From: Cenococcum geophilum
Taxonomy: Eukaryota
Assembly: GCA_050273025.1 (NCBI GenBank)
Contig: CP158635.1
Coordinates: 9,052,001 to 9,116,000, forward strand
Reading direction: 5' to 3'
Length of the DNA: 64,000 nt
Under the pieces are notes generated by a model. It ran no database searches. It was given only the letters and a program-made list of their open reading frames with translations, and was not told the origin of the DNA. Positions 18,352 through 62,166 of this stretch are shown here, piece after piece. Position 1 is the first letter of the stretch, and each line of letters opens with the position of its first letter. The position numbers and the translations under genes were made by a program.

Positions 18352-18599
18352 GTTAGAAGGAAATATAGTAGGATTTTTACTTATCGCCAAATTTGTAGGG
18401 CTTCTCCTATAGGAATTTCTCTAGTTCTTTAAGATTAAAGTTATTTTTATTTTTATATATCTACTATTAGTACTTTCTTAGCACCTGCTTTATATATATA
18501 CTTGCTAAAATAGTTTTCTAATTATTACCCTTTTCTTTTAAAGAAGCTTCTTAAATTAGGGCTTAAAAATTAGTTTACCCTCTATTAAGGGTTCTAATG

Positions 18600-35089: not shown

Positions 35090-35515
35090 TGTTACGGACG
35101 CTTTAAGTACAATGTTACGACTACTTAGAGAAGAGACGGAAGAAGCTAGTTAGTTAATTTAGGCACGGTTTAGGATAGAGCCGGTAGAACTATATGACGA
35201 GGAATAGTAGCCGAGGTCACATAATGTGCTACGTATTAAACGAGAGGAACGAGAGAAACTTACGTACCTTATATATAAGACATGCATTACGTATAAGAAG
35301 GATTTTATAGAAGTACGGTTATATATTTAAGGACCCTTAGTCCCTACTTAGATAGTTCCTTCCTTATAGTAATTCTTAGAATATAATTAGAGTTAATCTA
35401 TTAGGCAACCGCTCCACCAGTTATTATTACGTTGTTGACTTTTATACTTGCATTTCCTATACACCTAGCCCAATAACAGGACCTACCGTAGTTCTTACTA
35501 CAAGGTTCCGTTACA
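35090..35515 (+). repeat. 5' LTR of A2
   Basis: TGTTACGG...CCGTTACA, 426 bp. Confidence 0.96.
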
Positions 35516-38555: not shown

Positions 38556-39504
38556 AAGCCTTAGACCCTTAAAGGAATTTAAGGACAACACCTAAATTTA
38601 TAAGTTAATTGGCAAGATTAGTAGTTTAAGGCATTAATAGATAGTAGAGCAATAAGAAACCATATCTCGTTAGCAGCAGTTAAAAGGATGGGATTACCTC
38701 ACAGACAAAAGGAGGAACCTTACCTATTAGTGACAATTTTAGGAGATCCAATAGCCTACGGAGGAAGGATTATTAATCTTAAAACAGGACCTATTTAGTT
38801 AACTATTAAAGGGAGATAAATCGAGATGTCTTTTAATATCTTACCATTAGGACAGGACGAGGCAGTATTAGAAATGCTTTAGTTATAGGAATACAATCTA
38901 AAGATTGATTAGATTATAGGTTAGGTCGATATTAGAGATACTTAACGCCATAAGATATAATAATAAGCCAAGTTAATATAGTACTAAGTCGGAGCAATAT
39001 ATAAAAAGACTAAGTAAGGCTTAAGTTATATACTAAAGAGATATCATAAGTATAGTAAGAAACTATAGTCACCAAAAAGTAAAAAGCTGTTAAAGTATAT
39101 AGTATAGGACTATAAGATAGAATTAGAACTAGGAATAAGTCCAAAGTTCTTTCCAATCTATAAGCTTACTAAAGAAGAAGGTAGAGCATTAAAAGAGTTT
39201 ATTTAAGAGAACTTATAAAAGGGATATATTAGATCATCGCAGTTATTAGCGGGATATCTAATATTGTTTATACTAAAGAAGAATAGCAAACTAAGACTGT
39301 GTATCAACTATAGACAGTTAAACAGCATTACTAAAAAGGATAGGTATTCTTTACCCTTAATTAGCGAAATCTAAGACAGGATAGGCAATATATAAATCTT
39401 TACGAAGATAGATCTAAGATAGGCGTACCATTAGATCAGAATTAAGGAAGGCGATAAATAGAAGGCAGCCTTTAGGTTAAAGGAAGGACTGTATAAACTA
39501 TTAG

Positions 39505-39696
39505 TGTCACGGAACCCCACCGCAGGGGCCTCCATAGGAGAGCCCCGTGCTCTCACGTACACCTCACGTACAGCTTATGTCAGCTACGCGTAGGTATATC
39601 ACCTCCTTACGCCCTCGACCCTTACGATTGATCGCGCAACGTCTTGTAGACTCCTCGAATATATACGTCTTGTAGCCACTGCCCCGTCCCGTGACA
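39505..39696 (+). repeat. 5' LTR of family C
   Basis: Near-identical to 45657-45848. Confidence 0.97.
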
Positions 39697-42600
39697 TTAC
39701 GTTGCGCCTTTTTACTACCGACACCTAGCCTATGACCAATTCTACGTCTCTGTAATACTATAGGCGCTGCTAGAAGCAGCGTGCCTATAAGTTACCTCAC
39801 TTTATACTTCCAAGGAACCCATAATAGTAAGATGATATTCCTTACTAGCCACTATATTAAACCTAAAGAACAATCTAATACCTATACTTAACCTACGACG
39901 CCAATTAATCCCAGGAGAATTTGATTTATTAGCCCTAGCCTTAACCCCTAAGGAGATGGACACTAATAATGTCTTATCTTTTATTGACTATATAACTACG
40001 GACAAGCAAGTGGAAGGGCTACTACCTATTGAAATCGAAATACGAGACGCCGAGATATTTGTAAAAATGGTAGCATAAGAACCTGATAAATACTACCGCC
40101 TTCTATAGAACTACTACCTAAAGCTTATATAAGCCGAGATGCGTACTGCTTAAGATTATAATATTATCTAAGACCTACAAGCTTATAAGGCGCTCGCCGA
40201 TAATATATGTTAAGAAACTAAAGACGACCTCTGTGTGTCTAAACGCGACGTCTAATAGTTAAAGAAGGCTAAGATTGCACTTATTGCTACGGTTACTAAA
40301 AGAGAAGGTATAATTAAATACCTATAATCTTAGCTTAACGAGCATATTCATAATAACGCCAGACACCTCTCTACTGTATATAACGCCACTTAAGTCTCTA
40401 CGCCCCCGGCAACTTCACCTACTTAACGCTTGACGGAGGGTTAGCGCCAAGCAGCCTTACCTAACAGGAACCCCTACTAAAGTGATGATAAAAGCTATAA
40501 CGACTAAACCTAAGCTGCTACTGTAGGGTTTAATGCATATTACCCTAATCCCCTAGTTTTCTAGGGAGACCGTAAAGAATATAGCCACTAGAAGATGTAA
40601 ATCCGCGAAAAACTAACTTAAAGCGCCTGCCTTTTTCCTATAAAAGACACTAAGATTAGCTATATTATTAGGCGAATAAAGGGTACACTATTTAATAGAC
40701 TCTTCGCCCGATGGGAGACCAATGGCCCCTAGAAGTGGTAGTCCTACTAAGAAGTCCTTAACGATCTTAACCTAATATACCGCGACTACGACCTACTAGC
40801 TACTAACTAAGCTAAACTATATGCCCTAAAAATAAGCCCTACTGAATTATTTAATAAGTTCTATGTTAAATTCCAGGAATATACCGGAGCCCTCGCCTGA
40901 GACGATACTGAAGACTAGGAAGATCTCCTTAAAAAAGTCACTTATTGCCTTAGTTACGCAGCTGCTAGCTATAACTATAATAATGTTTATAATATAGTAG
41001 CAGCTATACGGAAGATTAAACGACGACTAAATTAGATTGCTACTGTAAACCCCCGCCCGAAGACCTCCCTATAGAAGCCCTCCGGACCTACTAAACCACT
41101 AACGCCTACTACCCTAAGCAACACTACTAGTCCTAATATTAACCTTTCTATACTAACCTTCCCGTAGAAGCTACTAGATAGAGAACGCGAGCTACTCTAA
41201 AAGCTAAAGCGTTGCTATAGATATCGTTAAGAAGGCTGTTATAGCTATAGCCTAAACTGCCTAATGGCTAGGTTTAGTAGCCGCCGCCTAATATTTAACC
41301 TAGCACCTCGAACACCAAATACGTTATTATATGCCACTACCGTATAAGACGAAGACGTAGTAATAGCGGTAGAGTTAGATACGGAAACGGAAAATGCTAA
41401 GTCCTAGCCCTAAGTTGTAGGTTAGGACGCCCTAATAATAAGGGGATCTATATATCGGCCTGCTTAATAAATAACTTAGTAAAGATAAATAGACGGAAAT
41501 AGATAGTTTTACCCATAATAGGAACTACTGCTAAAAAACAATATAAAAGCCGTTCTATAATTAATTATAGAGCTATTAATAAATTTATAGATACCTAATT
41601 TGTGCGTACTTATAACCTACCTACCTTACCCCTTACTAAAGCCCGCGCCCTATAACTCGCCGACGGTAGTTGTATTATATAGAAGATTACCTACATAGCA
41701 CAACTCTACCTAGATATAAATGGGCACTAGGAAGAACTCTAGGCCTATATTATACTACTTACTAACTACCCTATTATCCTTAGAATGAACTAGCTTAAAT
41801 AACATAACCCTACCATTAACTGGAAAAAGAGAGAAGTAACCTTTAACTTTAAATACTGTAGAGAGACCTGCCTAGGATATAGCCTAGCCGCCTTTATCTA
41901 CTCCCTAAGATACCAACCTAAGGAACCCCTTATTACCCTACCTATAACTAACTGCTACTATATAAGTGCCGCGGCCTTCTACCGTATAGTACGTAGGAAA
42001 GGCTAGACCGTTACCGTAGCCTCCTAATTACAACTATATAAGCTTAATAAAGAATAGGACTACGTCCTTTATAGTAATAGGATAGATATAGTTGACCTCC
42101 TAGAAAATAATGCCCCCGTAAAACTCTACGGACTTTTACCTTTAGACTTTAAGAAGTTTATAAAGCTTAAAAAAGGACTTACTAATAAGGAACTCCGTAA
42201 GCTCCTCCCTAAGAGGTACTATAACTTTATTAATATATGCTTATAAAAGAGCGCAGATATACTCCCCCCATATTAACCTAATAACTATGCCATTAATATT
42301 AAATAAGGAAAAACGCTACCCTATAAGAGACCCTACCTAATATTAAAAGACGAACTTTTAGTTGTCAAAAAGTATATCAACAAATACCTCAATAAAGGGT
42401 TTATTCGCCCTAGTATGTCCCTAGCAGCCGCCCCTATCCTCTTTACTAAGAAGCTAGGAGGAGGTATTTAATTCTACGTTAACTATAGAGGACTTAACAC
42501 TATTATGATTAAGAACCGATACCCTATACCGCTTATATATAAGACTCTTAAACAGCTTAGCTAAGCCAAAATCTATACCAAGCTTAATATTATCGCCGCC

Positions 42601-45600
42601 TTTAACCACCTTTAAATACGAGAAGGTAACGAATGGAAAACCGCATTCGTATTGCGCTTTAGCTAATTTAAATATACCGTTATGCCCTTTAGCGTATGTA
42701 ACGGCCCAGGCAGCTTCTAAAGCTATATTAATAACGCCTTATAGGACTACCTTAACGACTTCTGCTCTGCGTACCTAGACGATATACTTATTTATAGCGA
42801 TGACCCTTTTAAGTATACTAAGCACGTTTAAAAGGTCCTATAGCGCCTTAGGGACGTAGGACTTTATATTAATTTAAAGAAGTGTGAATTCTTAGTTACA
42901 GAAGTAAAATACCTTAGACTAATTATTACTACTAAGGGTGTTTATATGGACCCTAAGAAGGTATATATAATTACCGAATAGTAAACCCTTAACTGCATTA
43001 AAGACGTATAAGCTTTCCTTAGTTTCGCTAACTTTTATCAAAAATTCATATATAACTTCTCGGGTGTTATAGCACTACTTATAGCAATAATGCGAATAAA
43101 GGGCCTTTCTGCGAAAGGAAGAAAAATATATTTATATTTTATCTAGACGCCTAAATGCAAGAAGGCGTTTTAAGACCTTAAAGATGCTTTTACCAAAGTA
43201 CTTATCCTAGCTTACTTTATACCAGGACAATAACTCTATCTTAAGACTAACTCTTTAAACCATATTAACGTAGGCGTCCTTTCCTAGATAGGCGACAATA
43301 GTTTCCTCTACCTAGTCGCATTCTATTTATCTAAGCTTATACTATAAGAATATAATTATAAGATTTATAATAAGGAACTTCTTGCGATTGTATAAGCGTT
43401 TAAGGAATTCTAACCGGAACTTTCCTTAGTAGAACCTGACTAGCTAACTAAAGTCCTTACAGATTATCGTAACCTTAAGTACTTTATAACTACGAAACAG
43501 CTAAACCGACGCTAAGTACGCTAGAACGAGTTCCTCTCTAATTTTAACTTTAAAATTATATATAGGCTAGAAGTATAAGGTATTAAGCCTAATAGTTTAA
43601 TACGCCGCTTATAAGACCTTCCTTAGTCTAAAGATAACCCCTATAACCAGTTCCAATAATAAACAATCCTAAAAGCACGGAATTTGGCCTAAGGTATGCT
43701 ACCTATAATAGAGCCAACTATACCTTAGCTCCACACTATAGAACTAAAATTACCTCCCAAAATTAACGAGCTTATTACTACAGCATATAACACCTCTATT
43801 GACCTATTACTGTATTAACTTATTGCCGCAAAGACTGCTAGCGCCTGTATGTTGCCAACTAAACTCTAAAGCTTAGGCTAGATTAATATAGCAGCCTTAA
43901 AAGTAAAAGAAAACAGGCTCTATTATAGAGGCCGTCTATTTATCCCTAACTTAAAAAATCTACAACGGTAACTAATCTAAATAGCCCACGACCTCTAATT
44001 AAGCGGCTATCTAGATAAAGGAGGAACCTATAAGCTTCTTAGCCGATACTACTTCTGGCCTAAAATAATAAACTTAGTTAAACGCTTTATAGGCGCCTGC
44101 TACGGTTATAAGCGCGCTAAGGCCTTTAATATAAAGTACTAAGGACTACTACACCTTCTACTAGTACCTATACGATAATAGGCAGATATCGCTATAGATT
44201 TCGTTATTAACCTACTACCCTATAAGCGACATGGCCGTACCTATAAGAATATTCTTATAATAATATACCGACTTATAAAAAAGCGCCACTACGTCCTAAC
44301 CGAAGGCGTAGCCGTTAGCAACGTCACTAATGCCTTTCTTCGCGAAATCTACCGATTATATAGGTTACCTAACTCGATTACGTCTAACTAAGGCATATAG
44401 TTCGGCTCTGATATATAGAGACGAATCTACTAACGCCTTGGCATCTCCGTTAAGATATCTATATCCTTTTACCATAAAACTACTAGGCAACTAGAAAACG
44501 CTAATGCTAGTATAAAAGCGTACCTACAACAGGTAGTTGCCTATAGTTAAGATAACTAGGTGGATTACCTCCCACTAGGTGAATTCGCAGCGAATAACCA
44601 CGTCTTAACTACTATAGGACTTACCCTATTCTTCGCGAACAAGGGATATTACCCCTAATTTAGCATAGAACCACCAGAACCTATTAATAAGAAACTGCCA
44701 TATAGAAAACGCCTTAAGATACTACTTACTAACTAGTATACAGACCATATAAAAAATCTACTTAACTACTATAAGGGAGAAATGGCCTGGGCTTAAGCAA
44801 AGTAGGCTTACTTCGCCGACCATTATAAAACGCCACCACTGGAGATACGTATTAGCGACTAGGTATGGCTAGATATACGCAATATCTCTATATAGAGGCC
44901 TATAAAGTCACTCGATTATAAGAACCTTAGCCCCTACCTAATTAAATAAATTATTAATAGGGGAGCCGTATACGAGCTAGAGCTCCTACCTACCCTAGCC
45001 ACCCGCGGGATATAGCCTGTATTTTACCTATAGCTACTACACCTTCACCAGCCTAACCCCTTACCGGGGCAGATATAGCCCGAACCCCTATTAGTACTAA
45101 TCCGAGATAAGAATAAAGATGAGAACTATAAGGAGTGGACTGTTAAACGAATTATTAACTCTAAATACTTTAGTAAAGGCAGAGGACGATGGCTCTACTA
45201 CAGAGCTATATACACAGGATTCAACATAGATTAGCCAGAATGGCAACTATAGGAAGACTTCAAAAATGCAAAGGATCTAATTAGCGACTTTTACTACGCG
45301 AACCTATAGAAACCGGGCCTAAGCAGAGATTTTATACCTAATCCTCTATAGGAGCCCTTATAGAGTTAAACCGTTATACATTACCACATAGGGGCAAATT
45401 GCCGTTAGATTGCCGTTAGATTGTGATAAAGTGCGATCACGTAACTAGAATATCGTTAAGATGTCCAGGAACTTTAACCGGCGGTTAAAGTTATCTAATT
45501 GGTCGGATTCTTAGATGCTAAGCCTTATTATATAATATTGTTTTAAGCCTTTAGTAATACCCCCCTTTCTTCTTTTCTATACCCTAAGTGTCCCTTCTAT

Positions 45601-45656
45601 ATATATATAGTAACCACAGCGTCGCCGGAGCTCCGCCTCTATAGGAGGGGGGGTAG

Positions 45657-45848
45657 TGTTACGAAACCCCACCGCAGGGGCCTCCATAGGAGAGCCCCGT
45701 GCTCTCGCGTACACCTCGCGTACAGCTTATGTCAGCTACGCGTAGGTATATCACCTCCTTACGCCCTCGACCCTTACGATCGATCGCGCAACGTCTTGTA
45801 AACTCCTCGAATATATACGTCTTATAGCCACTGCCCCGTCCCATAACA
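45657..45848 (+). repeat. 3' LTR of family C
   Basis: Near-identical to 39505-39696 and preceded by the PPT. Confidence 0.97.
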
Positions 45849-48211
45849 ATTAGTTATGCAATTTAGGCTTATAAACGCACCAGTAACGTTCTAGAAGTGT
45901 ATTAACAATATATTAGGAGAACACTTGGATGAATTTATTATAGTATACCTTAACGACATTATTATCTACTTAATGACTAAGGAAGAACACGGGGAATATG
46001 TTAAATAGGTTTTAAGGAGACTATAAGAAGAATAGATGCTAGTAGCAATTAAGAAATGCAAGTTCTTTACTAGGAAGACCAATTTCGTCGGATTTATTAT
46101 TAAACTAGGCTAACTTAGTATAGATCTAAGGAAGATCGAGGCTATAGTGAATTAGTAAGAACTAGAGAACGTCACGCAGTTAAGATCGTTTTTAGGGTTT
46201 TGCAATTACTGCAGAAGGTTTATAGCGCAATAGTTAAAGAATATTAAACCATTTACGCGATTAATAAAGAAAGAAGAACTATAGGCATAGGGAGAGGAAC
46301 AAAGAGAACTCTTTAAGAAAATTAAAGAGTTATTTACCCGAGAGCTAGTTCTTAAAATCTATTAACTAGGACTAGAAACGGTTATAAAAATAGATGCATT
46401 AGACTATATACTAAGAGCATGCTTTATATAGAAACATTAAGATAGATAGCACCTAGTAGCATATTATAGTCGGAAGATAATACCACTAGAGTTAAACTAT
46501 AACATCTATAACAAGGAGTTGCTAGGTATAGTTACAGTATTAAAGGAATAGAGAGCATTCTTATAAGGTATAGAGAAACTATTTATAGTTAAGACGGATT
46601 ATAAAAACCTAATAGGATTTTTAACAATAAAGGAGCTTAACTAAAGACAGGTTAGATAGGCAGAGATACTTATAGAATACTATTTTAAGATTTAGTATAC
46701 TAAGGGTATAGATAATACGCGGGCAGATACTCTAAGCTGTAAAGCTAAACTATAAAATAATAAGAAGCCATTAGGGGCTTTACTGCGAAAAAACACAGAC
46801 GGATTAATTAGGTATAATTATCCAAAAATCATAGCGACTTAAGAAGATAATAAATTAGATAAAGTCTATAAGACACCAGAGAGCTTTTAGGCGTAAAGAA
46901 TTCTAGAAGAATAGCTAGAAGATCTATAGACGGATATATATAAAAATTAAGAAGTAAAGTATATCCTAAGAAGCATAGCAGAGCAATTTATAGAAGAATT
47001 CTATAAGGGATTAACTTAAGGACATAATAGAGCTACGGGCTTAGTGTTAAGACTCTAAAAGGAGTATATTATTAATAAAATCTAGGGAATAGCTAGGAAA
47101 GTTATAAAAGAGTATCTAGATTGCTAAAGGAATAAACTAATAAGGCATAAGCCATATAGAGGGCTATAACCTATTAAAATACCAGAGAGACCATAGGAGG
47201 TCATATTATAGGACTTTATTGTTAAGTTACTAAAGTTAAGAGACCCTATTATTGGACAAAATTATAACGTAATTTTAGTAATAGTAGACAAGCTTATAAA
47301 GTGGGGATACTTTATAGCATATACAGAAGAAATCTCAGCGGAAGATGTCGCTAGAATCTATATTAAAGAAGTGTTTATAAGATATAGAGTACTAAGTAAG
47401 ATTATATCGGACAGAGATCTAAGATTCGTAATAGTATTCTAGGAAGTATTCTTAGCAAAGTAAGGAGTTTAAGCAGCAACTTCTACCGCATATTATCTAC
47501 AGACAGACGGTTAAATGGAAAGATTAAATTAGACACTAGAACAGTATCTAAAGTATTATATTAATCATGCATAGAACAATTAGGTATTATTATTACTAGT
47601 TATACAGTTTATATACAACGCAACGCTATAGGAAGGTATAGGTATATTACTATTTAAGGCAAATTACGGATATAAGCTAAGAATATTATTATTACTAAGA
47701 TAAGTAAAGAAAACGAGTAGCACAGCTAAAGAAAGAATAAAGATATTAATAAATCTTTATATAGACCTTATAGAATTAATAAAGAAAGTACAAGAGAGAA
47801 TAAAAAGGTACTATAATACTAAGAGATCTAAGGGACTAGATTTTAAGGAGGGAGATAAAGTATGGCTACTATATAAAAATTTTAAGAGTCAATAACTAAG
47901 TAAGAAGTTAGACTATGTTAAACTAGGACCTTTTAAAATTATATAAAGGATTTTATAGGTTATATTTAAGTTAAACCTACCAGCTAAAATAAAGATCTAC
48001 CCTATATAGCATATCGCAATGCTAGAGCTAGCATATAGGAATATTAAGCTACCGGTCTATAAGGCAGATATATATAAAGGATAAGAAGAAGACAAATAGC
48101 AAGTTTTAAAGATTATTAGTTATAAGGATATTAACAATAAAACATAGTACGAGGTTAAGTAAATAGGTTACACTAAGACTACCTAGGAGCTACTAGAGAA
48201 TTTAAAAAATA

Positions 48212-48863
48212 TTATAAGAAAGGTATAGGAGTATCAAAAGAGATTAGGTTAGGTAGTATTAACAAAAAAGGATTACTAAAGAACGAGTCACCTAAGGGGG
48301 ACCTAAGAAGAGCAGTTGCCGAGCTACTCGGATCTATTTCCTTCTCTATTAGAAGAGAATCCGTTTTTTTATCGCCAAGTTCCTATAAACCTTATTCTAT
48401 AAGTTTCTACTCCTTAAAACAACCCTTCTTACGAACCTTCTTAAGACGAAGTAAACGAGTAGATGCCGCGATCTAAGTATCTAGGGCCTTCTATTCCGCA
48501 TTATAAGAACATTTTAACTTAGTAAGGGCTTAAGACAGTTTACTATCTAGCTGCGCAGTAGTAGATTAAATATAAAACCCTAAGAGAAATTAATTAGGGA
48601 ACCAGATAACTATTAAGAGTAATAGGTCGCGTATATTTAGTATTAAAGGTAGAGCAAACGTCGCAGGACAAATAAATATTCGCTTTAGTATACTCTAAGT
48701 AAGAGGACGGTTATTACAAAGATGGACTTACTAACGTAATATAAACTAACCCCTTTTTTAAACAGCGAGAATACGGAGACGGTATAATCTCACTAAGAGA
48801 TAATATTATAGCAATAGTACGAGCACAACGTTGGGCGTGTAAAGAAGAAATTACTTTAGGTAT
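48212..48863 (-). pseudogene. Antisense intron-containing Zn2Cys6-like + coiled-coil gene of A2
   Basis: Exon 1 (48863-48635) de-RIPs to C-x2-C-x6-C-x13-C-x2-C-x8-C. A 55-bp intron (48634-48580) creates DAE-W across the junction, and exon 2 is coiled-coil-like. The 3' end is uncertain and overlaps the pol end. Confidence 0.8.
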
Positions 48864-48971
48864 AATAAGCAATAATATTAACCAAATTAATTAGACGGAT
48901 ATTACACCTTTAGTAAATAACTTAGAGATATTTTAAATCTTTAAGAACAAAGATAAAGGGGAGGGGGATAG

Positions 48972-49397
48972 TGTTACGGACGCTTTAAGTATAATATTAT
49001 AACTACTTAGAGAAGAGACAAAAGAAGCTAATTAGTTAATTTAGGTACGGTCCAAGATGGAGCCGGTAGAACTATGTAACGAGGAATAGTAGCTAAGGTT
49101 ATATAATATACTACGTATTAAATAAAAGGAATAAGAGGAACTTATGTACCTTATATATAAGACGTACATTATATATAAGAAGGATTTTATAGGAGTACGG
49201 TTGTGTATTTAAGGACCCTTAGTCCCTACCTAGATAGTTCCTTCCTTATAGTGATTCTTAGAATATAATTGGAGTTAATCTATTAGGCAACCACTCCACT
49301 AGTTATTATTACGTTGTTAACTTTTGTACTTATATTTCCTATACACCTAGCCCAATAACAGGACCCACCGTAGTTCTTACTATAAGGTTCCATTATA
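48972..49397 (+). repeat. 3' LTR of A2
   Basis: 426 bp, homologous to 35090-35515, followed by TSD GGCAC. Confidence 0.96.
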
Positions 49398-52300
49398 GGC
49401 ACGGTCTAGAATAGAGCCGATAGAACTATATAACGAGGAATAGTAGCTAAGGTTATATAACGTGCTATATATTAAATAAGAGGAACGGAAGGAACTTACG
49501 TACCTTATATATAAGATATATATTATATATAAGAAGGATTTTATAGGAGTATGGTTATATATTTAAGGACCCTTAATCCCTACCTAGATAGTTCCTTCTT
49601 TATAGTAATTCTTAGAATATAATTAGAGTTAATCTATTAGGCAATTACTCTACCAGTTATTATTACGTTATTAACTTTAATTTACATTACCTATATACCT
49701 AGCCTAATAACGAGCCTATTATAGTTCTTGCTATAAGGTTCCGTTATATAATTACTACCTAGTTATAGTATTAAATATAAAAAGTTAAATAATATGCCAC
49801 TAAAAGCAGCCACTACAACGCTATTAACGGCGGCAACTACTTTAAGGTTAGGTAACACTAGTATAGCAGATACTAACTTATAGTAACCTATAACGGTTAG
49901 ATAATTATAAAAGATAGTTAACTAGGTAATAACTAATAATACAGCGTTAGAAGAAAGGGTTAATAGGATAGAAGCAGTAAAGATTAAGCTATTATCAATT
50001 AAAAGATATTTAGGAGAGAGATTAAAGCTTAAGGGATTTCTTATATAAATATACTTTAAAGTTACATAAGAAGGGGCGAAGCCACTAATACCTATAGATC
50101 GAATAGCCTATGCGGGACTATTCCTATTAGGAAGAGCACTTAAGTAGTTTAAGCCTTACTTTACGGAAATATAGGTAAATGGAATGATGACTACTAGTTA
50201 AGAGGTGCGATTTATATTTTTAAGCTAGGAAGGGTTCGCAAAGCGACTTATATAGATATTTAGAGACCTAAAGGTAGTAACTATAGCGGAAAGAAGACTC
50301 TAAGATATTATATAATAAACCTTAGCAATTAAGTATATAATATAGTTCCAGACGTTAGCTATATAAGTTAAGTAGAATAATAAGGTGTTTATGGCATAGT
50401 ATAAATAGGGACTTAAGGCTAAAGTTTAAGACGTAATTATTCTAATAAAAGATATAGATACCCTAAGGGAACTAATAGATTAAGTAATTAGATATACTAA
50501 AAGAAATAGGCTAAAAGAGGTTAAAATAGAGTTCTATAGTTATATAAGACATAGAGTACACAATAACTAAAGCTAAGTTAGAAACTATAGTATAGCGTAG
50601 AGCTAATAGATCTAAGTAGTACTAAAAAAGCCTATAAAAGATAGAGTAAGAAACTATAAAAACCTAGAGGTTAAGGATTTAGTAATTATAGGACTAAGGA
50701 GCAGAGGCTAAACTAGGAATCTTAGTAGTAGAAGACGTTTAGGTAAACTCTATAGTAAAGTTAATAGTTTAAAGACGGAGCTTATATAAATTATAGAAAA
50801 TAAGGTTACTTTATAAGGGATTATAAAGATAGTTAGAGTTACTATATAATAAAGGGAACCTAACTAATAGTAGAAGATATATATATATAGAGGGATAATA
50901 GTATACTGCGAGGAACAAAAGAATGTTTAATTAGAAGTTTTGTGTTTTATTATAATAATATATACCAAATTTATAAAAACGCTAAGTATAACATAAGCTA
51001 TTAGCTATAAAAGCTAAACCCTATAGCGTATAGAGGAACTAATAAACTAGTTTATAAATTAGATATTAAGGATAATAAATTTAATATAGGCGAAATATTC
51101 TATAATAATAAGGTAATAAGGGTAGCTTACTAGGAGTATATAAACCTTAGAGATGTTATACTAGAGGTAAAGAATAATTCCACTATAACATAGGGAATAT
51201 TAGTAGGGATTAAGACCCTACTAGATATAATATCTATTACTTTATAAGACGTAAGAAAAGTAGGATAGTAAACTACTTTGGCACTTAATAAAGGCAAAAG
51301 GCTAAAAGCTTAAGATTCTTAAGATAAGATAAAAGATAACTAAGATTCTTAAGATAAGATAAGGTAAGCTTAAGGACCTATAACGGATAGAAACCAATAG
51401 AGTAGAGTAGTAGCTTAGTTTAAAGATATATAAATAAGCTTAGAATAGAGTTTCCTATAGGTATAAGACTCTTAAGATAAAATAAGTAAGATTTAAGACT
51501 CTTAAGATAAGATAAGAATACCTAAGCCTAGTTAGACTAAGGTAGGAGCTAAGCTTAAGTTAGAAGTAAGCTTAGGATTAAGAATTCTATAGGACTAAGA
51601 TTTTAAGATATAAATAAGGACTATTAACGAGATTAAGAAGTAAGAAGACTTTAAGAATCCACTTATAAGACGCGAAAAGAAAGAAACCATAGAGGAATTT
51701 AGAGTAAGAATTACCTTATAGCAAGAATAGAAACTAGATAAAAGATCTAGCATATTGGAATGTATATAAGATAGAGTACTAGTATAAAGAATTACTAATA
51801 GGCCTAGGGTAGGCACATTAAGAGCTAAGTGGCTTACTAAACTAGAATAAGAAGAGGATCTAGGGATTTTAACTAGGTTTAAGGAATAATATATAAAGGG
51901 CTGTTATAATATAGTAATAAGAAGATACTTCCTTACGGATAAGCCGTATATACTTAAGGGGTTATACTAAAAGTAGTATAGATAACGATATAATAACGAG
52001 TAGGAAGATTTCTATATATAGCTAAATAAAAAAGTTATTTAAGACTACCCGATTATAGAGAAGGCTATAACTTATATTAAAGGAGCCTTAATTATAATAT
52101 TAAAAGATTTAGAGGAGTAATTAGAGGACTAAAGAAGTAAAAGGCGAATTTTTATACCTATAAATAAAGTTATAACGCTTAGATTAATATAAGAAAGGTT
52201 TAAACTTAAGAATAAAAATAAGCTAAGATTTAACCTAAGATACTAAGTATATTATATATTAGCATAGATTATATATATAAATAATGCATATAATATATAT

Positions 52301-52750
52301 AGAGTACCTAAAAATAAAAACTAAAAGTATCTAAGAAGAATATATTAGATAACGGATAAGGTAAAATATAAAAACGCTAAATATATATATAGTTAGTATC
52401 TAGTAGAAGTATAAAGCTAAGGGGACTTAATACTTTAGCTAGGAAGATTTCTTACAGAAGAATACCTAGATAGATAGTAGTAGTAGGAATGCCTAGAGAA
52501 TATATATCTATAGTATATTAAAGATAAAAAGTAAACTAAGTATTAGCTAAAAGTGGACTAAGTATAAACAAAATTAAGCAGCTAATAGTTAGGAAAAGTA
52601 GAGGCCTATAAGACTAGAGGGAACTAGTAATAAAGCCTTAAACCCTTAAAGAAATTTAAGGATAATACCTAAATTTATAAGTTAAGTGGCAAGATTAACA
52701 GTTTAAAGCATTAATAGATAGTGGAGTAATAAGAAATTATATATTACTAG

Positions 52751-53183
52751 TATAACGGAACCTTATAGCAGGAACTACAATAGGCTTATTATTAGGCTAA
52801 GTGTATAGGTAATATAAATTAAAGTTAATAACGTAATAATAACTAGTAGAGTAGTTACCTAATAGATTAACTCTAATTATATTCTAAGAATTACTATAAG
52901 GAAGGAACTATCTAGGTAGGGACTAAGGGTCCTTAAATACACAACCATACTACTATAAAATCCTTCTTATATATAATATACGTATGCTCCATTTGCTTTA
53001 TTATAGATCTTATAAATTATATAGATTATATAGATTATATAGATTATATTATATAACCTTAGTTACTATTCCTTATTATATAGCTCTATCGGCTCTATTC
53101 TAGACTATACTTTAATTAACTAACTAGCTTCTTTTAACTCTTCCCTAAATAGTTATAATATTATACTTAAAGCGTCTATAACA
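52751..53183 (-). repeat. 3' LTR of A3 (433 bp, with an internal replacement)
   Basis: TATAACGG...CTATAACA is the reverse complement of the family-A LTR; ~52984-53048 is non-homologous. Confidence 0.92.
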
Positions 53184-53291: not shown

Positions 53292-53964
53292 ATACCTAAA
53301 GCAATTTCTTCTTCCTTAACTGCTCGTTATATTCGCACTATCGCTATAATACTATCTCTTAGTGAAATTATACCGTCTTCGTATTCTCGCTGTTTAAAAG
53401 AGGGGTTAGTTTATATTACGTTAGTAAACCCATCTTTACAATAACCGTTCTCTTATTTAAAGTGCACTAAAGCAAATATTTATTTGTCCTATAACGTTTA
53501 CTCTATCTTTAATGCTAAATATACATAACTTATTACTCTTAATAGTTATCTAGTTCCCTAATTAATTTATCTTAGGGTTTTATATTTAATCTACTAATAT
53601 AAAGCTAAATAATAAACTGTCTATTACTCTAGCAGAGTTATATTATTTTTATAACGCAGAATAGAAGGCAGCTAATACTTAGTAAAGGGCCCTTAAGTCT
53701 TATCTTACGGCGTCCGCTTAGTTAATCTATCTTAAAAAGGTACGTAAGAAGGTTTATTTTAAGGAGTAGAAGCTTATAAAATAGGGTTTATAAAAACTTA
53801 GTAATAAAAGAATGGATTCTTTTTTAGCTGAGAAGGAAATAGATCTAAATAGCTTAGCAACTGCTCTTCTTAGGTCCCCCTTAGGTAACTTATTCTTTAG
53901 CGATTCTTTTTTATTAATACTGCCTAACCTAATTTCTTTTAATACTTCTATACCTTTTCTATAG
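53292..53964 (+). pseudogene. Antisense intron-containing Zn2Cys6-like + coiled-coil gene of A3
   Basis: Exon 1 at 53292-53520 (229 nt, same as A2) and intron at 53521-53575 (55 bp, ends TTAG). It retains Cys2 (TGT) and Cys5 (TGC), whereas A2 retains Cys2 and Cys6. Confidence 0.8.
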
Positions 53965-56056
53965 CGTTTTTTAAATTCTCTAGTAGTTTCTAGGTAGTCT
54001 TATTATAGCCTATCTACTTTACCTTATACTATATTTTATTATTAATGTCCTTATAGCTAACAATCTTTAAAACTTATTATTTATTTTCTTCTTACCCTCT
54101 ATATATATCTACTTTATAAACTAGTGGCTTAATATTCCTATATACTAGCTCTAGTATTACAATATACTATATAGGGTAGATTTTTATTTTAGCTAGTAGG
54201 TTTAACTTAAATATAACTAATAAAATCCTTTAAATAATTTTAAAAGGTTCTAGTCTAACATAGTTTAACTTCTTACTTAATTATTAACTCTTAAAATTTT
54301 TATATAGTAGCTATACTTTATCTCCCTCCTTAAGATCTAGTCTCTTAGATCTCTTAGCGTTATAGTACTTTTTTATTCTCTCTTATACTTTCTTTACTAA
54401 TTCTATAAGGTCTATATAAAGATTTATTAATATCTTTATTCTTTCTTTAGCTGTACTACTTATTTTCTTTACTTATCTTAGTAATAATAATATTTTTAGC
54501 TTATATCCGTAATTTACCTTAAATAGTAATATGCCTATTCCTTCCTAAGGTGTTATATTATATATAAACTGTATAACTAGTAGTAATAATATCTAATTAT
54601 TCTGTACGTAATTAATATAGTGTTTTAAATACTACTTTAGTGTCTAATTTAGTCTCTCTGTTTAACTATCTATCTGCGGATAATATATAGTAAAAATTGC
54701 TACTCTAACTCCTTATTCCGCTAAGAATACCTCCTAAAATACTGTTATAAATCTTAGATCTCTATCTAATATAGTCTTACTTAGTGCTCCGTATTTTATA
54801 AATACTTCCTTAATATAAATTCTAGTAATATCTTCTGCTAATATTTCTTTTATATACGTTATAAAGTATTCCTACTTTATAAGCTTATCTACTATTACTA
54901 AGATTATATTATAATCTTATCCGGTAATAGGATCTCTTAATTTTAGTAACTTAATAATAAAGTCCTATAATATAACCTCCTATAGTCTCTTTAGTATTTT
55001 AATAGGTTATAGCCCTCTATATAGCTTATGCCTTATTAGTTTATTTCTCTAGTAATCTAGATATTCTTTTATAACTTTTTATACTAAGCCCTAGATTTTA
55101 TTAATAATATACTCCTTTTAGAGTTTTAATACTAAGCCTACGGCTTTATTATATCCTTAAGTTATCCCTCTATAGAAATCTTCTATAAATTACTCTGCTA
55201 TACTTTTTAGAATATACTTTACTTCTTAGTGTTTATATATATCTATCTATAGATCTTCTAGCTATACTTTTAGAATTATTTATACTTAAAAGCTTTTTAA
55301 TAACTTATAAACTCTTTCTAGTTCTTCTTAAGTTATTATAATTTTTAGATAATTATACCTAATTAACCCATCTATGTCTTTTTACAGTAAAGCCCCTAAT
55401 AGCTTTTTATTATTTTATAGTTTAGCTTTTTAACTTAGAGTATCTGCTTATATATTATTTATACCCTTAATATATTAAATCTTAAAATGGTATTTTATAA
55501 GCATCTCTACCCATTTAACCTATCTTTAGTTAAGTTCCTTTATTATTAGAAATCCTATTAAGTTCTTATAATTTATCTTAACTATAAATAGTTTCTCTAT
55601 ACCTTATAAGAATGCTTACTATTCTTTTAATACTATAACTATACCTAATAACTCTTTATTATAGATATTATAGTTTAACTCTAGTGGTATTATCTTCTAA
55701 CTATAGTATACCACTAGGTGCTATTTATTTTAATATTTTTATATAAAGTATACTCCTAGTATAAAGTCTAATATATTTATTTCTATAACTATTTCTAGTC
55801 CTAGTTAATAGATCTTAAAAACTAGCTCCTAGGTAAATAATTTCTTAACTTATTTAAATAATCTTAGCTATTCTTCCCCCTATACCTATAGTTCTTCTTT
55901 TTTTATTAATTACGTAAATAGCTTAATATCCTTTAACTATTACGCTATAAACCTTCTATAGTAATTGCAAAACCCTAGAAATAATCTTAACTATATAACG
56001 TTCTTTAGTTCCTACTAATTTACTATAGCCTTAATTTTCTTTAAATCTATACTAAG

Positions 56057-56264
56057 TGTTGGTTACATAGGGTGACTTACCAATAACGACTACTTGAGTA
56101 GGGTTACAGTGATGTTGGTTAATAAAGCTTTTTAATTGGAATAAGGAAGGGCGAGGAGCTTAAGGCTCCTCGCCACGCTAGTGCCGCGGCGACACGTAAT
56201 GGCAACTTACCATTACGTGACGGCAGTTTGCCGTACGTAACGGCAAATTGCCTTATTCCCGACA
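56057..56264 (-). repeat. 3' LTR of Copia copy 2
   Basis: TGTTGG...CCGACA, with an adjacent purine tract on the minus strand (AAAAGAAGAG). Confidence 0.96.
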
Positions 56265-59200
56265 CTAGCAACTCTTCTTTTATAGTTGCCCTCTATATAC
56301 AAATACTGCTTAACTATTATAATAAATATAGATCCTCCTTATTTACTATTGCCATTATAATATAAGTCTCGCTATCCTAAAATTTGCTTTTTAGCACGTG
56401 GTGCTTTCTTACTAAGGAGTCGTGGGTAGACATTATATTAGGGCCGTTAGGGCCGCTAAGGCGCTAGCTATAAGCGAGCTAATAGCAATTTTCCATGCCA
56501 GGTATAGAAAATCCTAATTAGCTGGTTAAAATTAGGGTCTGTAAAGCGTTATACTCTTACTCCCTTTTAACCTAACCTTTAACTCATACGTGTAAAGTAT
56601 TTGTATTAATAAACGTTTCTAAAGCCTTATTTAGGTTTGCCTTCGTTATTATATCTACTAGGTTATTTTAACCGTTAATCTATTAAATCTTAAAGAGTTC
56701 TCGCCGTTTATAGGATTAATAAAGTGCTATAATATCGATTATAAGGCGCTTCTCCTTTATAGTACTAAGCTTAACTAAGCACTTATAGAGGGAGTATAAG
56801 TTAGTACATACAATTATAGGGATAATAGGAAGTTTAAGTCGATCTATAATTATCTTTAGGGTAGTTCCAATTGCAATTACTATATTAACTCCGCTAACCA
56901 TTCTATATATCTCTGACGCTAGAACGCTTTAAGTAACGCGCTTACTCTTGGTTAAGCTCTAATAGATAAGATTGCCGTAGATTGTGAAGTTATTCTCTCT
57001 GGTAGATTTATTCATAATAATGATTTTATATTCTAGCTAGGAGCTAAAATCTTTATTATTTATAAACGATCTATTAATAAATATAAAGAGCTTAGCGGTG
57101 GGAAGATTAATAGGCATATAGAGTAGTCTCCGGTTAAGATAGTTTATTTACTAGGAGAGACGCTTATTTAGGGTAAGGATGTTATCCTTAGTTGGTTCCT
57201 AGTATTAAGTGGTAATAGAGAGATTAAATAAAGCCTTAGGTTGATAGATAGAAGTAATATAAGCTCTATAAGCGCGTTGCTCTATATATCCTTATTTTGG
57301 AGAATTAACGTTAATAACGTTAATCTTTTTACCTTAACCCTTCTGGCACAAAGCAATAGAATCCTTATTTAGGGAGAGGACATATTTATTAAAGAGTAAT
57401 AGTGTTATTAAATTAAGCTTTTCCTTTGGCTTTGCTATAAGATTTGCCTTTACTAGCTTATCTTCTTTAAGAGCTAAGAATTAGTCATCTCCTAAGATAA
57501 TTATATCGTTAGTTTATATGCCGATAATTCTAAATAGAGTTCCTGTAGTTGTAATAAGGAAGTATAAATTGAATATAAAAGTAGTTATTAAAAGCTTCTC
57601 TTTATGGTGCTTGCTATAGGTAGCCTACTAGTAAGTTCCTGCCTCTACGATTTTATACAATGGCTTGAGCATAACTATAATTGTATCTTCGGAGTATTAG
57701 TGGTAAATTTGCTCTAGAAGGTATGCTAATATTAAGTACTAAAGGTGCGTCTCTGATTAGGTGTAGGCCTAAGTAATATCTTATAGATAGACTGCTATTC
57801 CATTCTTTATTAGGGAGGGAGCTAGTGCAATAATAACTCGCTAACTAGCTCGTTAAATTATAAGAGATTGTATAAGAATTACCTCCTTACTATTGTTATT
57901 ATAGCCTTAGATAATAAGCCTTAATTTCTTAAATAGGGCGTTAGTAGCTTTGCCTTTAATCTCGTTAACTATTCTTGACTTAAAGATACGAACTTTATTA
58001 AACTTAGTAGGGTTATACTTCTTGAATTTAAAGACCCCTCTTATAATAAGACTATCGATCTTCTACTTATTGGATGCTTAGAAAGGAGCTTTTAGAGTTA
58101 TAATGCGACCTTTCTTTTAAAGCTATTTTGCGAGTTTAAAGTTAGCCTTCTCCTTAGCTGTTATAAAGGCCATTAATAGCTCGACTCTATTCTCGATAGT
58201 AGCAATAAATTACTCTTTAAAATTAATAAGATATTAGCAATTTCGTAATCCCTTTAGGCGACCTCTACCGCGTTGTAGTTGCGGCGTATCTACTATAATT
58301 GTATTAGGATTATAATTGCCTTCTAGAGTATGTTAGTTATAGCTCTTCTTTAAGGTATCTTCTATGGTATTCTACAAAGGCTTAGAACTGTTATCTTTAT
58401 AGTAAGGCTTAATAATAGTTAAATAGAATTAAGTAGGTCCGTAAGGCATCTAAATAGTATAAGTTTAACTATTAATTGTAATAAGTTGATGTGGGCCTAA
58501 CTATTCTCCCTTTTTACGCTATACGCGTACCTTAGACTAAAGTGGTAGATTAAGCGTAGTTAAGGTGTTTAGGCTATTTCTTATTCCTAGTGCGTTATTA
58601 ACCTAGCGTGTAGCGTAGAGACGTTGTACCTCCTTCATTGCCTTATGAATAGCCTTAGCTCGTTATACGACGGAGGGAGATAGTAGAGAATTGTTAGTTA
58701 TTTAAGGGTAGGCGCTAAAGACTAGCAATATAGGTATAAGTCTATCCGGGCTAGCGGAATTGTTAATAGCTTTAATAGCTATTTATAAGGTAAGTTCTTT
58801 ACTAGCATTTTCTAGTTCTAAAGAGATAATCTTATATACGCGGCGTAATGGTATATAATATCGTTTTACTTTTCCGATACTATTATATGCCTTAATAGGG
58901 ACTTTCTTAACCTTAATTGCTATTACCTTTATCTATTATTAAAACTCTATAAATAAAAAGTTCTTTCCTATGTTATAGACGATTTAATTAGGGGGTCCTA
59001 GGTAGATATTAATCTAGTATAATTAAAGGGTATCCTATGCATTCCTAGCTAATATATCCTTTAAGAATCGTACGGCTTAGAAGGAGGTTAAGAAGTTAAT
59101 AACTTAGAGTACTGGCTTGCCGCTAAAATATATAACGTTAATAATAATATAGAAGTTAAAGTTGTAGTTATCTTTAAGGGTAAACTTAAATTGGCTAGGG

Positions 59201-61958
59201 GACTTTTGGTTTATTTAGCATTAATAGTAGTACTTTATAAGATACTTAATTACCTTAACCTCGATTTTATGGCCTACCCGCTAAAAAACCCTAAGTAATT
59301 GGTGAACGGATAGGTGGCTAAAACAACGGTGTAGTTGATGTAACTCTAACTTAGTTAAATAGCTCTAAGTAACACTCTTTTCTAGTTAATAAAGGAGTAA
59401 CTAGGGGTAACCCTACTTACGTATAACGGGCACCTAATTATCTCCCTAAATAAGTATATTTTTAAGGTTATTAAGCTTAACGCCTAATTTGTTTATATCT
59501 TTAATACAAAATAGAAATGGGGTGTTTATAGGAACGACGTGAAAGGTAATATACCCTAAGGGGGTTTGGACCCTAATTGTGCCAATAAAAATCGCAGTAC
59601 CCTTACTAAAACAAATTATGTATTAGCCTGCTGTTAAATAGTTAATTTAAACAGAGCTATTAAGCTGCTAAAGGGCTTGAACTTAAGGTTCTCCTGCTAT
59701 AGATACTCCTGCGGCTTTAGTATCTGGTATAATACTATAGAAGATGTTTGCCGAGTATTTGTTATTAAAGGAGAACGCGGAACTCTCTCTTAGCTTATTA
59801 AAGATATCTAACTTTATGGTAAAATAGAGCGTAGATTGGTTATTAAGAATAGTGACGGTTTATATACCATCTACCTTACTATACTTAGTGAAGTATTAGT
59901 TGGGTAAGTACTCCTTAATTTCTATATCTATAAGGAGCTATTTAGCCTTATTAACCTTACCCTTAAGATCTTCTACGCCTTTATATTGAACTAGGAAGCT
60001 TTAGAAGTAGGCTGTAATAACCTTATAATTTCTAACGTTTCTTATACTCTAGCGGAACTTATTATATACCTCCTTTTATTTATTAAGAGAATGCTTAGTT
60101 AACTAGTAATTTAGTTTCTTATAAATGTAGTACTTCTTTTAGCGATTACTTTAAAATGAACCTTTATAAGGACCTCTACCTTTGCCTTATAGTTATTAAT
60201 TGTACCTTCTACCGTATTGCCTACCCTGGCCACTATATGTTTAATTAGTCTAGTTATAATTGTATTAGTTAGGCGGGTTAATTAAAGTAGGTTAAAGTTG
60301 GGCGTTAAATTGCTATACTTCTTAAGAGTATAGAGCGGTGCTAATAGAAGATCTTAATTAAGTATATACTCCTTTGTAAGTATTTATAGGATTAAAGAGA
60401 GTAAGGTTATATTCTTTAACACCTTAATATACGCTAATAACTTAATTATATAGGCTAAAGTCCTCTTAATATAATTTGGATAAACTACGCTAAATTATCT
60501 AAAGTTAATTAAAGAGCTTTTGAAGATAATTAAGCTAAGGGATACCTGGGTTTGTAGCAATAATCCTTAGGAAGGTAGTCTCTCTCTATTCTAATATATA
60601 CTGCTACTTATTCTCTTTTATTTTAAAGTGGCATCTTAACTTATATATTATGCGGTTAAAATTATATTCTTTTCCTACTAAACGATTATAATAGAAGGTA
60701 CTAGCTTGGCCCTTAAGCATAATAGAATAGGTGTTGTGGTATTAATTAGACTCTATTCCTACCTTCTAGCAACAGTTATAGAAGATACGTAATTTTAAAT
60801 TAAGAATATTATATAATTCCCCGCTAAACTTCTTCTTCTAATCTAAATAGAGCTTTGTAAGCTTTATAAGTAATTTTAAACTGCCTCCGATTTAAGATTA
60901 AGATAGAGGAGGTAGGAGTTATATTATAGGCTACAGTAGGGACGTAGGTCTGGTTGGTGGAGTCTAAAGGTTAGTAAATCGCGAAGTAAGGGGATCTTGT
61001 ACTTGCTTGTGTTAAGAGGTAGTAGTTAAAGTTATAGGTTAAATTAGTGGATTCTGGGGAACTAAAGATAGAGGTAGAGGCGATGGATATAGAACGGAAG
61101 AACTTGCGCCTAGAGCAATAGAATTAGAACGTATCTCTTATAGTATATTACTTAGATTCTATTATAAGTTAAGCTTCCTTATAGTGCATAGTTAGTGCTT
61201 AATCTCTTATATAGTCTATTTGTGCTCTTTTTTTACGTTAAGAACCTGCTCCTAAATATTATTTCTAATAGTACCCCCATCCTTAAGGACAAATACTCTA
61301 TTCTCCTAAAGGAAGTTATAGAAGTTCTATATAATATCCTTGTTTATAGGGGCCTATATTTCCTTTATCTATTTAATAAAGTCCTCCTTTATATATTCCT
61401 ATAGCGCGGTATTATTATATTTACTATCCTTATAATATACTATATAGTGTAATAAAAATCCATTTAAGTCTTATTCATTAGCGTTTATAAGGTTAATTAT
61501 AGCTTTATTCTATATCTTTAGGTTAATATCTTCCTTATACTTCTTTAGGTAGGTTAACGCTATAGTAGGTATAGAATTAACGGGGTGTCGTACGTTAAAG
61601 GTAGGTAGGATTTTCGGTTTTATAGGATCTTGTAGGTTTGCTATTAAAAGGTAGGCAATTTAAGATATTGTTTAACGCGTTTTAGACGTTAACTTGGGAC
61701 CTTAGGTTTAGTGATACTTCTAACCTAAAGTACTTAACTAAATCTTCGTAAACGCGGTTATTCTGCGTAATAGATGTAACTTGGTATCTCCTAGTACTTA
61801 GTGATACTTCTATTACTAGTTTTTCGTAAGTTTAAGGTAGCATAGTATCGCCGGGATCTATTCTATATAAGCGTATATAGCACCCCTATATAAGACTATC
61901 TCTTCTATTTAAAAACCTAGCTGCTTTATAGTTAACTATATATTTAACCACTAATTAG

Positions 61959-62166
61959 TGTTGGTTATATAGGGTAACTTACCAATAACGACTACTTAAG
62001 TAGGGTTATAGTGATGTTGGTTAATAAAGCTTTTTAATTGGAATGAGGAAGGGCGAGGAGCTTAAGGCTCCTCGCCACGCTAGTGCCGCGGCGACACGTG
62101 ATGGCAACTTGCCATCACGTGACGGCAGTTTGCCGTACGTGACGGCAAATTGCCTTATTCCCGACA
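61959..62166 (-). repeat. 5' LTR of Copia copy 2
   Basis: TGTTGG...CCGACA, 208 bp, followed by TSD CTAAG. Confidence 0.96.

Follow-up and report, generated by a model that had tools for sequence, protein, structure and literature searches.

The 64,000-nucleotide stretch of Cenococcum geophilum DNA analysed here, referred to below as the window (contig CP158635.1 of assembly GCA_050273025.1, positions 9,052,001 to 9,116,000 of the forward strand), holds at 48212-48863 what are very probably the remains of a genuine antisense accessory gene of a fungal Ty3/Gypsy chromovirus, killed by repeat-induced point mutation (RIP). The gene lies on the strand opposite gag-pol, within the last ~650 nt before the polypurine tract, and comprises two exons of 229 nt and about 365-390 nt separated by a 55-nt GT-AG intron. 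It occurs in the window in two 3' halves of the same retrotransposon family, termed A2 and A3, and both of these copies of the gene are dead. That it was a real antisense coding gene with a single 55-nt intron, as the original prediction had proposed from the window, is supported by the ancestral states preserved among family copies, by substitution tests restricted to transversions, and by two database proteins in which the exons are joined.

Structure of the antisense gene across the family

In A2 the gene runs on the minus strand. Exon 1 (48635-48863, 229 nt) begins at a start position that now reads ATA and holds a six-Cys module at codons 31-67 (48663-48773), of which two of six positions still encode Cys. 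The intron (48580-48634, 55 nt) has a donor that now reads AT and an AG acceptor, and exon 2 (48212-48579) encodes a long-helix region and a C-terminal tail, ending in a stop codon at 48214-48212. In A3, where the gene lies on the plus strand, exon 1 occupies 53292-53520, the 55-nt intron 53521-53575 and exon 2 53576-53964; the latter is 21 nt longer than its A2 equivalent owing to one indel, the sole length difference between the two genes. A3 shares the ATA start position, AT donor and AG acceptor of A2, and each copy has 9 internal stops in addition to the terminal stop. The coordinates, exon 1 length and intron length originally given for both copies are all correct, as is the claim that the six positions, spaced C-x2-C-x6-C-x13-C-x2-C-x8-C, are TGY or TAY in each: A2 has Y,C,Y,Y,Y,C, and A3 has Y,C,Y,Y,C,Y. 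An intron antisense to the genomic RNA is never spliced from the retrotransposition template and so is kept in each new copy.

Family loci were gathered by a metagenome scan, from which the best 80 of 408 confirmed relatives were used, 77 of the 80 coming from one metagenome assembly. Fifteen loci without one full-length match to the end of pol were left out. The resulting alignment has 68 rows over window positions 48028-49122, namely 66 rows from 65 loci together with A2 and A3; the second assembly is represented among the aligned loci by L067 alone, L051 and L077 having been dropped. All 80 loci are RIPed, with a GC content of 0.34-0.46 over the stretch and 21-38 stops in the pol frame. Scans of viral contigs and genome contigs yielded no relative at all. 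The mutational signature is that of RIP, as seen in the excess of transitions among family copies in sequencing run X1 (A>G at 112, G>A at 113, C>T at 103 and T>C at 89 places, compared with 36 transversion places) and in a TpA/ApT ratio of 1.55-2.09 across the aligned copies.

Despite this damage the ancestral states of the gene can be read from the alignment. The start codon is ATG in 9 of 68 rows and ATA in the others, the GT donor is kept in 13 and the AG acceptor in 67, and the intron measures 55 nt in every row. Exon 1 measures 229 nt in 53 rows and 232 nt in 13, with single rows at 241 and 247 nt. All exon 2 length differences are multiples of 3, in line with the suggestion that its frame survives the 21-nt difference between A2 and A3. 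The six Cys codons are TGY in 21, 45, 26, 35, 60 and 34 of the 68 rows respectively and TAY in the remainder, and a terminal TAG is present in 67. A RIP-aware reconstruction, in which C (or G) was chosen wherever a column mixed C and T (or G and A), yields an uninterrupted spliced open reading frame (ORF) with 76 + 128 codons; 4 and 7 stops remain in the two other antisense frames of exon 2. The ATG, GT, AG and all six TGY codons therefore survive among the family copies, and the reconstructed ORF is open, as had been anticipated for a de-RIPed consensus. The gene is an additional ORF antisense to gag-pol, situated in the 3' internal region and carried by 68/68 aligned copies, which agrees with the proposal that it belongs to the element.

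A profile built from the 68 natural exon 1 translations and searched against 1.84 billion representative proteins retrieved 210 proteins at E <= 1e-3, including 113 at E <= 1e-10. Most of these are short ORFs from RIPed DNA that start at the same Met, and the names of the members of their clusters were in no case informative. The six-position C/Y pattern is kept in 130 of 176 stored homologues, and all six Cys are present in 6. Of the homologues, 112 extend far enough beyond the sixth Cys to show whether the intron is present. Two of them, the un-RIPed proteins P0160 (152 aa) and P0163 (239 aa), have exon 1 joined directly to exon 2 and read ..SDAE-W-SRV.. across the junction. Examples from the remaining 110 read on into the intron, and P0182 and P0183 start inside it. 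The splice had been predicted to rebuild DAE-W; this is literally true of P0160 and P0163, whereas the window itself reads NTK-W in A2 and NAK-W in A3. Exon 1 of A2 aligns to P0160 (E 5e-16) and its exon 2 to P0163 (E 3e-14), as does exon 2 of A3 (E 1e-12), and the C-terminus of P0163, ..TPVPFP, is that of the window model. The simplest reading of the joined proteins, encoded on contigs of 1246 nt and 1423 nt, is that they derive from transcripts.

The homologues also retain traces of their genomic context. In 27 database homologues the first Cys is preceded by 75 residues or more; among these, author-made regular expressions detect the mirror image of the polypurine-tract motif in 19 and that of the pol tail in 8. 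By our own reading, the mirrored Cys block is also present in P0005 and P0006, distant pol proteins with 38-40% identity across this region.

In RNA run X22, of which ~12% was read, 58 reads matched, mostly less than 90% alike; none fell on 48406-48715 or the intron, and no splice joints were seen. These reads are 80-95% alike and represent G/C-richer variants, which points to an origin in other, less mutated copies. Over 47662-48343 all first mates, whatever the library's strand convention, are on the plus strand, and depth reaches 9 at 48158-48281, which corresponds to the 3' end of the antisense gene and its would-be 3' untranslated region. First mates over the long terminal repeat (LTR; 48964-49335) are on mixed strands.

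Purifying selection and the overlapping pol frame

RIP produces transitions only. Transversions alone were therefore scored, as purine/pyrimidine polymorphisms present in at least two copies of the 68-row alignment. In a 1.5-kb pol control these number 36, 21 and 67 at pol codon positions 1, 2 and 3. Over exon 1 the counts by pol-frame position are 4, 15 and 31, which correspond to antisense positions 2, 1 and 3 and follow the usual order for a coding frame, read antisense. Over exon 2 they are 24, 45 and 25, and pol position 2, equivalent to position 3 of the antisense codon, has the most (chi-square p 0.011). The constrained frame thus shifts between the exons as the 55-nt intron predicts.

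Estimates of omega (dN/dS) from the same transversions agree with this periodicity. The pol control, read in the sense direction, has an omega of 0.20 (binomial p for excess synonymous change 1.2e-17). The predicted antisense frame has an omega of 0.22 in exon 1 (p 2e-7) and 0.44 in exon 2 (p 1e-4), compared with 0.59 (p 0.066) and 0.94 (p 0.45) for the pol frame over the same two regions. Values for the remaining antisense frames lie between 1.1 and 3.8 and are not significant for the two exon 2 frames tested. The pol-frame value of 0.59 opposite exon 1 is at the level of the wobble-sharing mirror frame within the pol control (0.67). The antisense frames were under purifying selection during the diversification of the family. 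The low dN/dS expected of a genuine gene is thereby found, in transversion-only form and from RIPed copies.

The pol reading frame of A2 continues past the chromodomain at 48244-49092 on the plus strand, running through the antisense gene and the polypurine tract and then 121 nt into the LTR before a stop at 49090-49092. When residues 600-1066 of this frame, with stops read through as X, were used as a query, six un-RIPed pol proteins (P0001-P0006, 602-1402 aa) covered 98-99% of the queried residues, and window positions 47701-49100 are collinear with residues 932-1391 of P0002 at 55% identity (E 6e-171). All six are open to the same end as the A2 frame, so that pol extends ~280 codons beyond the chromodomain and across the antisense gene. 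The original prediction had placed the gene between pol and the 3' LTR; this does not hold, given that the pol frame crosses the gene and stops within the LTR and that the last ~32 nt of the gene overlap the final codons of the chromodomain. The start of the gene (48863) lies 108 nt inside the 3' LTR boundary (48972).

Simulation gives a 35% chance of an open pol frame opposite exon 1. Opposite exon 2 the chance is 1.4%, with 3.5 stops expected, yet omega for the pol frame there is 0.94; the openness of this frame in six of six relatives thus suggests selection to stay open in a frame whose residues appear unconstrained. The region looks dual-coding, with the antisense protein as the constrained partner. 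On the sequence evidence it is somewhat probable that the overlapping pol tail is translated, and it is probably an overprinted, disordered extension. An 'acidic tail' motif in the pol ORF is the translation of the polypurine tract (48943-48971), and its conservation, being explained in this way, is no evidence for a functional peptide. The last ~38 pol codons (48972-49092; 8082-8197 in L001) lie within the LTR and hence also in every 5' LTR; in most loci tblastn locates them ~3.2 kb before the pol match. Neither pol nor the antisense gene accounts for a third frame, which despite heavy RIP stays open over 99 aa in A2 (48177-48476, plus strand) and 81 aa in A3 (53754-53999, minus strand). Its openness is probably compositional, the strand there being purine-rich.

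The predicted protein and alternative readings

The predicted product of about 200-240 aa consists of a short basic N-terminus, the six-Cys module, a helix of roughly 100 residues encoded by exon 2, and a conserved acidic-hydrophobic C-terminal tail. AlphaFold2 models one long helix with a predicted local distance difference test (pLDDT) score above 90, spanning residues 98-197 of P0163 and 77-151 of P0160, and short helices start at each C-x2-C. Of the dimerising coiled coil originally placed in exon 2, behind an N-terminal Cys module, the long helix and the order of the two parts are borne out, and dimerisation is putative.

The family to which the Cys module belongs is less clear. Zn2Cys6 clusters are spaced C-x2-C-x6-C-x5-12-C-x2-C-x6-8-C, a range into which the spacings of the module fit save for the middle loop, which at 13 residues is one beyond it. 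The best score against Zn_clus (PF00172) is 17.5 bits, for L001, below the cut-off of 21 and confined to profile positions 16-36. At E <= 1 this family is matched by 11 of the 68 RIPed copies (best E 0.0017), and the un-RIPed proteins P0160, P0176 and P0163 score 13.6, 16.5 and 8.1 bits. A profile search of the Cys module against the PDB returned no Gal4-type chain at E <= 10, its only matches being C2H2 linker motifs of chance likeness (best E 0.02). Membership of the Gal4 type, as originally suggested, is thus not upheld, the likeness covering half of the profile. Foldseek gave no match in the PDB, the module being modelled at a pLDDT too low for fold search, and a wide VIA-align search found only generic single long helices (Z about 7).

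The sole family matched near end to end by the module is DUF3716 (PF12511; positions 3-59 of 59), with scores of 17.4 bits for L001, 14.5 for L068, 15.4 for P0168 and 16.4 for P0176 at a cut-off of 22. At E <= 1 it is found in only 4 of the 68 RIPed copies, and it matches 2 of 5 database proteins. The nearest clusters in the ESM Atlas are unnamed Ascomycota hypothetical proteins (scores 0.78-0.89), and the nearest named one carries PF12511 on 28% of its members (0.77). We regard DUF3716 and the Atlas clusters as a lead, suggested by sequence likeness, rather than as membership. In Zymoseptoria, DUF3716 members are described in REP9-1 and REP9-2, two accessory genes carried by a class II transposon (PMC8232023), and a Fusarium member is reported to be orthologous to a Neurospora protein that binds telomeric sequence (PMC10776026).

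The combination of Cys module, long helix and acidic-hydrophobic tail would be consistent, by analogy, with a protein that works like a small dimeric DNA-binding regulator. A tentative model, possible rather than probable, is that the antisense protein would be a putative zinc-binding, dimeric, nuclear DNA-binding factor, with its own promoter placed within the 3' LTR or beside it, and acting on the element's own expression or chromatin state. The roles originally proposed, those of an LTR transactivator or an anti-silencing factor transcribed from the 3' LTR, are likewise putative. A wider proposal is that a widespread clade of ascomycete chromoviruses encodes a zinc-cluster-like dimeric DNA-binding regulator from an intron-bearing antisense gene driven by the 3' LTR, that pol has been overprinted across this gene so that ~650 nt specify two proteins, with constraint on the residues of the antisense protein and on the openness alone of the pol tail, and that the Cys module forms a new branch near DUF3716 or Zn2Cys6. 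Taken as a whole, this seems to us rather unlikely.

Our first reading of the region was a plain C-terminal extension of pol with a chance antisense ORF, and it was overturned by the family states, the periodicity, the splice and omega. In its fuller form this alternative takes the pol extension as the sole gene and the antisense frame as an accident of a GC-rich region, in which the Cys codons are reversed Gln and His codons. The six antisense Cys do map one-to-one to Q/H in the pol frame, and in three of the six, by our reading, a Glu codon in front leaves TGY as the sole choice; all six un-RIPed relatives, with which the window is collinear, have an open pol frame, and an open frame opposite exon 1 would arise by chance in 35% of simulations. 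However, periodicity and omega choose the antisense frames over the pol frame in both exons, the frame under constraint shifts exactly at the 55-nt intron, the ATG, GT and AG are ancestral, and in two proteins the exons meet at precisely the predicted splice, all of which makes a mirror artefact very improbable.

A regulatory antisense RNA, serving as a source of double-stranded or small interfering RNA or in copy-number control, would render the ORF incidental; such roles are discussed for antisense transcripts of LTR retrotransposons in one review (PMC7264820), and the X22 first mates over 47662-48343 all lie on one strand. Purifying selection at the amino-acid level in two frames joined by an intron argues against this, as do the 130 of 176 homologues that keep all six Cys positions when Tyr, the RIP product, is counted along with Cys, and we consider it highly unlikely that RNA is the whole explanation. 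An RNA role may coexist with the protein. A host gene transduced once into the family and carried without serving the element is an alternative to which the weak resemblance of the Cys module to DUF3716, a family of fungal host genes (15-17 bits), lends some weight, together with the PF12511 share in the closest named cluster of the Atlas; retroelements are documented to transduce host genes (PMC7264820). Against such a passenger stand the presence of the gene in 68/68 copies and also in P0005 and P0006, pol relatives whose identity across the region is only 38-40%, the action of purifying selection while the family diversified, and the retention of the polypurine-tract context in 19 of 27 testable homologues, and we judge it very improbable.

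Several points weigh against our preferred reading of the stretch as the remains of a genuine antisense gene. With the ATG, GT and four of six Cys gone and 9 internal stops each, the window copies by themselves prove no gene, and the C-or-Y regular expression has 7 matches in the window, 5 of them elsewhere, where Markov-simulated windows lead one to expect 1.7; taken alone, the window thus shows the pattern no more than chance would. Most of the additional copies, coming mainly from one assembly, are independent RIP outcomes and not independent lineages; the RIP-aware reconstruction clears stops in every frame by construction, and the indel-rich part of exon 2 is aligned with uncertainty. The exon 1 frame and the pol frame share wobble positions, with antisense Cys mirroring pol Gln/His, and part of the exon 1 conservation is therefore automatic. 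The RIP-aware ancestor retains pol-frame stops at 48442, 48583 and 48595, positions at which CAA or CAG occurs in only 0-2 of 68 copies, so that the case for an open pol frame in the window family comes from its relatives. The contigs encoding P0160 and P0163 may be transcripts or intron-less DNA. The Cys module is modelled at a pLDDT of only 47-72, no Pfam family reaches its threshold, and function, zinc binding, DNA binding, dimerisation and promoter are putative.

Few accessory genes of LTR retrotransposons have been annotated, and hardly any are understood. The gene described here is recognisable even in RIP-ruined copies and has hundreds of unannotated Ascomycota homologues (210 representative clusters at E <= 1e-3). 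Its apparent sharing of DNA with an open pol extension represents a rare case of opposite-strand dual coding in a eukaryotic mobile element. For annotation, 'hypothetical proteins' of about 85-110 aa in fungal repeats may be its unspliced first exon. Should the product prove to be a DNA-binding regulator, it would open a way to study how the expression or silencing of fungal retrotransposons is governed by the elements themselves, and should the Cys module be a branch of DUF3716/Zn2Cys6, it would link transposon accessory proteins to host DNA-binding, including telomere-binding, proteins.

The element, its setting and known systems

The window is AT-rich (GC 0.23-0.40) and composed of nested LTR retrotransposons. 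Self-comparison places the two family-A 3' halves at 46113-49397 on the plus strand (A2) and 56057-52751 on the minus strand (A3), with 84% identity between them. The A2 plus-strand frame starting at 45901 matches the Pfam families RVT_1 (30.5 bits), RT_RNaseH (70.9) and SH3_Tf2-1 (36.8), and Integrase_H2C2 with only 14.9 bits. The integrase SH3_Tf2-1 domain (PF24626) corresponds to residues 651-709 of this frame, at 47851-48027. The chromodomain is placed at 48082-48243 by alignment to relatives carrying PF00385; Pfam Chromo at E <= 1 has no match in the RIPed translation of A2 itself, and the domain is assigned solely through 55% collinear identity to relatives with PF00385 and PF00665. By direct reading of the sequence, the polypurine tract of A2 (48943-48971, plus strand) abuts the start of the 3' LTR, which begins TGTTACGG, occupies 48972-49397 on the same strand and matches window positions 35090-35513 and 17920-18352. 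The A3 3' LTR lies at 52750-53183 on the minus strand, and LTR pairs of ~420 bp are present in the family loci L001-L004, L016 and L041. With these pol domains, a chromodomain by alignment, LTRs and a polypurine tract, the element is a Ty3/Gypsy chromovirus.

Both family-A copies are broken in or near the reverse transcriptase region by other LTR elements, at 39502-45848 and 56055-62169. The first insert has LTRs at 39502-39696 and 45654-45848 that are 95% identical, and the second at 56055-56267 and 61957-62169 that are 96% identical. The two inserts are without mutual similarity by self-BLAST, and the second is related to window positions 1-1818 (87%). A further family-A element (49396-52742) begins directly after the A2 3' LTR, with some 70 bp missing from the beginning of its own 5' LTR. 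The match between the 5' LTR of the A2 element and the 3' LTR starts at 35090, the equivalent of 48972, and 17920-18352 consists of an LTR fragment with a short piece of the internal end. The arrangement at these three places, read from sequence, suggests tandem or recombined arrays. Copies of the family are extremely numerous in the source organism as well as in its relatives (sequencing runs X1, X17 and X14), with 51,818 contig pieces in run X1 on a 1.85-kb stretch at >= 80% likeness, and near-identical words of the family-A stretch also occur in root and soil metagenome runs.

The module and helix of the antisense protein invite comparison with Zn_clus proteins, with which they share six Cys in the order C-x2-C-x6-C ... 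C-x2-C-x8-C followed by a long helix, the motif of the first three Cys matching profile positions 16-36. They differ in scoring below the cut-off in RIPed and un-RIPed members alike and in the 13-residue middle loop.

Retroviruses provide a parallel in layout. HBZ of human T-cell leukaemia virus type 1 (HTLV-1) is a spliced, dimerising nuclear regulator of the basic leucine zipper class, and the antisense protein ASP of human immunodeficiency virus type 1 (HIV-1) overlaps a sense gene. The likeness is one of layout, in which the 3' end of a retroelement bears an antisense gene; there is no known homology, and the window gene encodes a Cys module with a long helix whereas HBZ has a basic leucine zipper. 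The HTLV antisense promoter is described in one review as sitting in the 3' LTR (PMC7264820); for the window gene, expression from the LTR is putative. If the antisense protein does act as a regulator, it would be a fungal counterpart of HTLV-1 HBZ.

In plants, antisense ORFs between pol and the 3' LTR are described in the same source for maize Grande (gene23), rice RIRE2, Silene Retand and Phaseolus PvRetro13 (PMC7264820). Its account has them in most copies of a family, with nuclear localisation for some and a suspected regulatory role, and gives the Grande ORF its own promoter upstream (PMC7264820). Position and orientation are those of the window gene, although the plant ORFs belong to another kingdom and to non-chromovirus lineages and are described as lying between pol and the LTR, whereas the window gene is overrun by the pol frame. 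To our knowledge there is no sequence similarity between them.

In fungi, brtn is an additional antisense gene of Boty-like Gypsy elements in Botrytis and Sclerotinia, credited in four papers to Zhao et al. 2011, Virology 417:248 (PMC7264820, PMC8365987, PMC4227169, PMC5987419). A Monilinia transcript is reported in one of these to match truncated Pol and BRTN together (PMC5987419), as would be expected if the gene adjoined or overlapped the end of pol. The comparison with brtn is by description, any homology to the window gene being putative, and no homologue found here bears the name BRTN. The two nevertheless share the character of an extra antisense gene at the 3' end of pol in a fungal chromodomain LTR retrotransposon, carried by the family as a whole. 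The kind of gene described here is therefore already known. Zhao et al. may have covered one or other of the six-Cys module, the intron and the pol overlap for brtn, and the family, the six-Cys module, the selection signature and the overlap with pol may be new details of the window gene.

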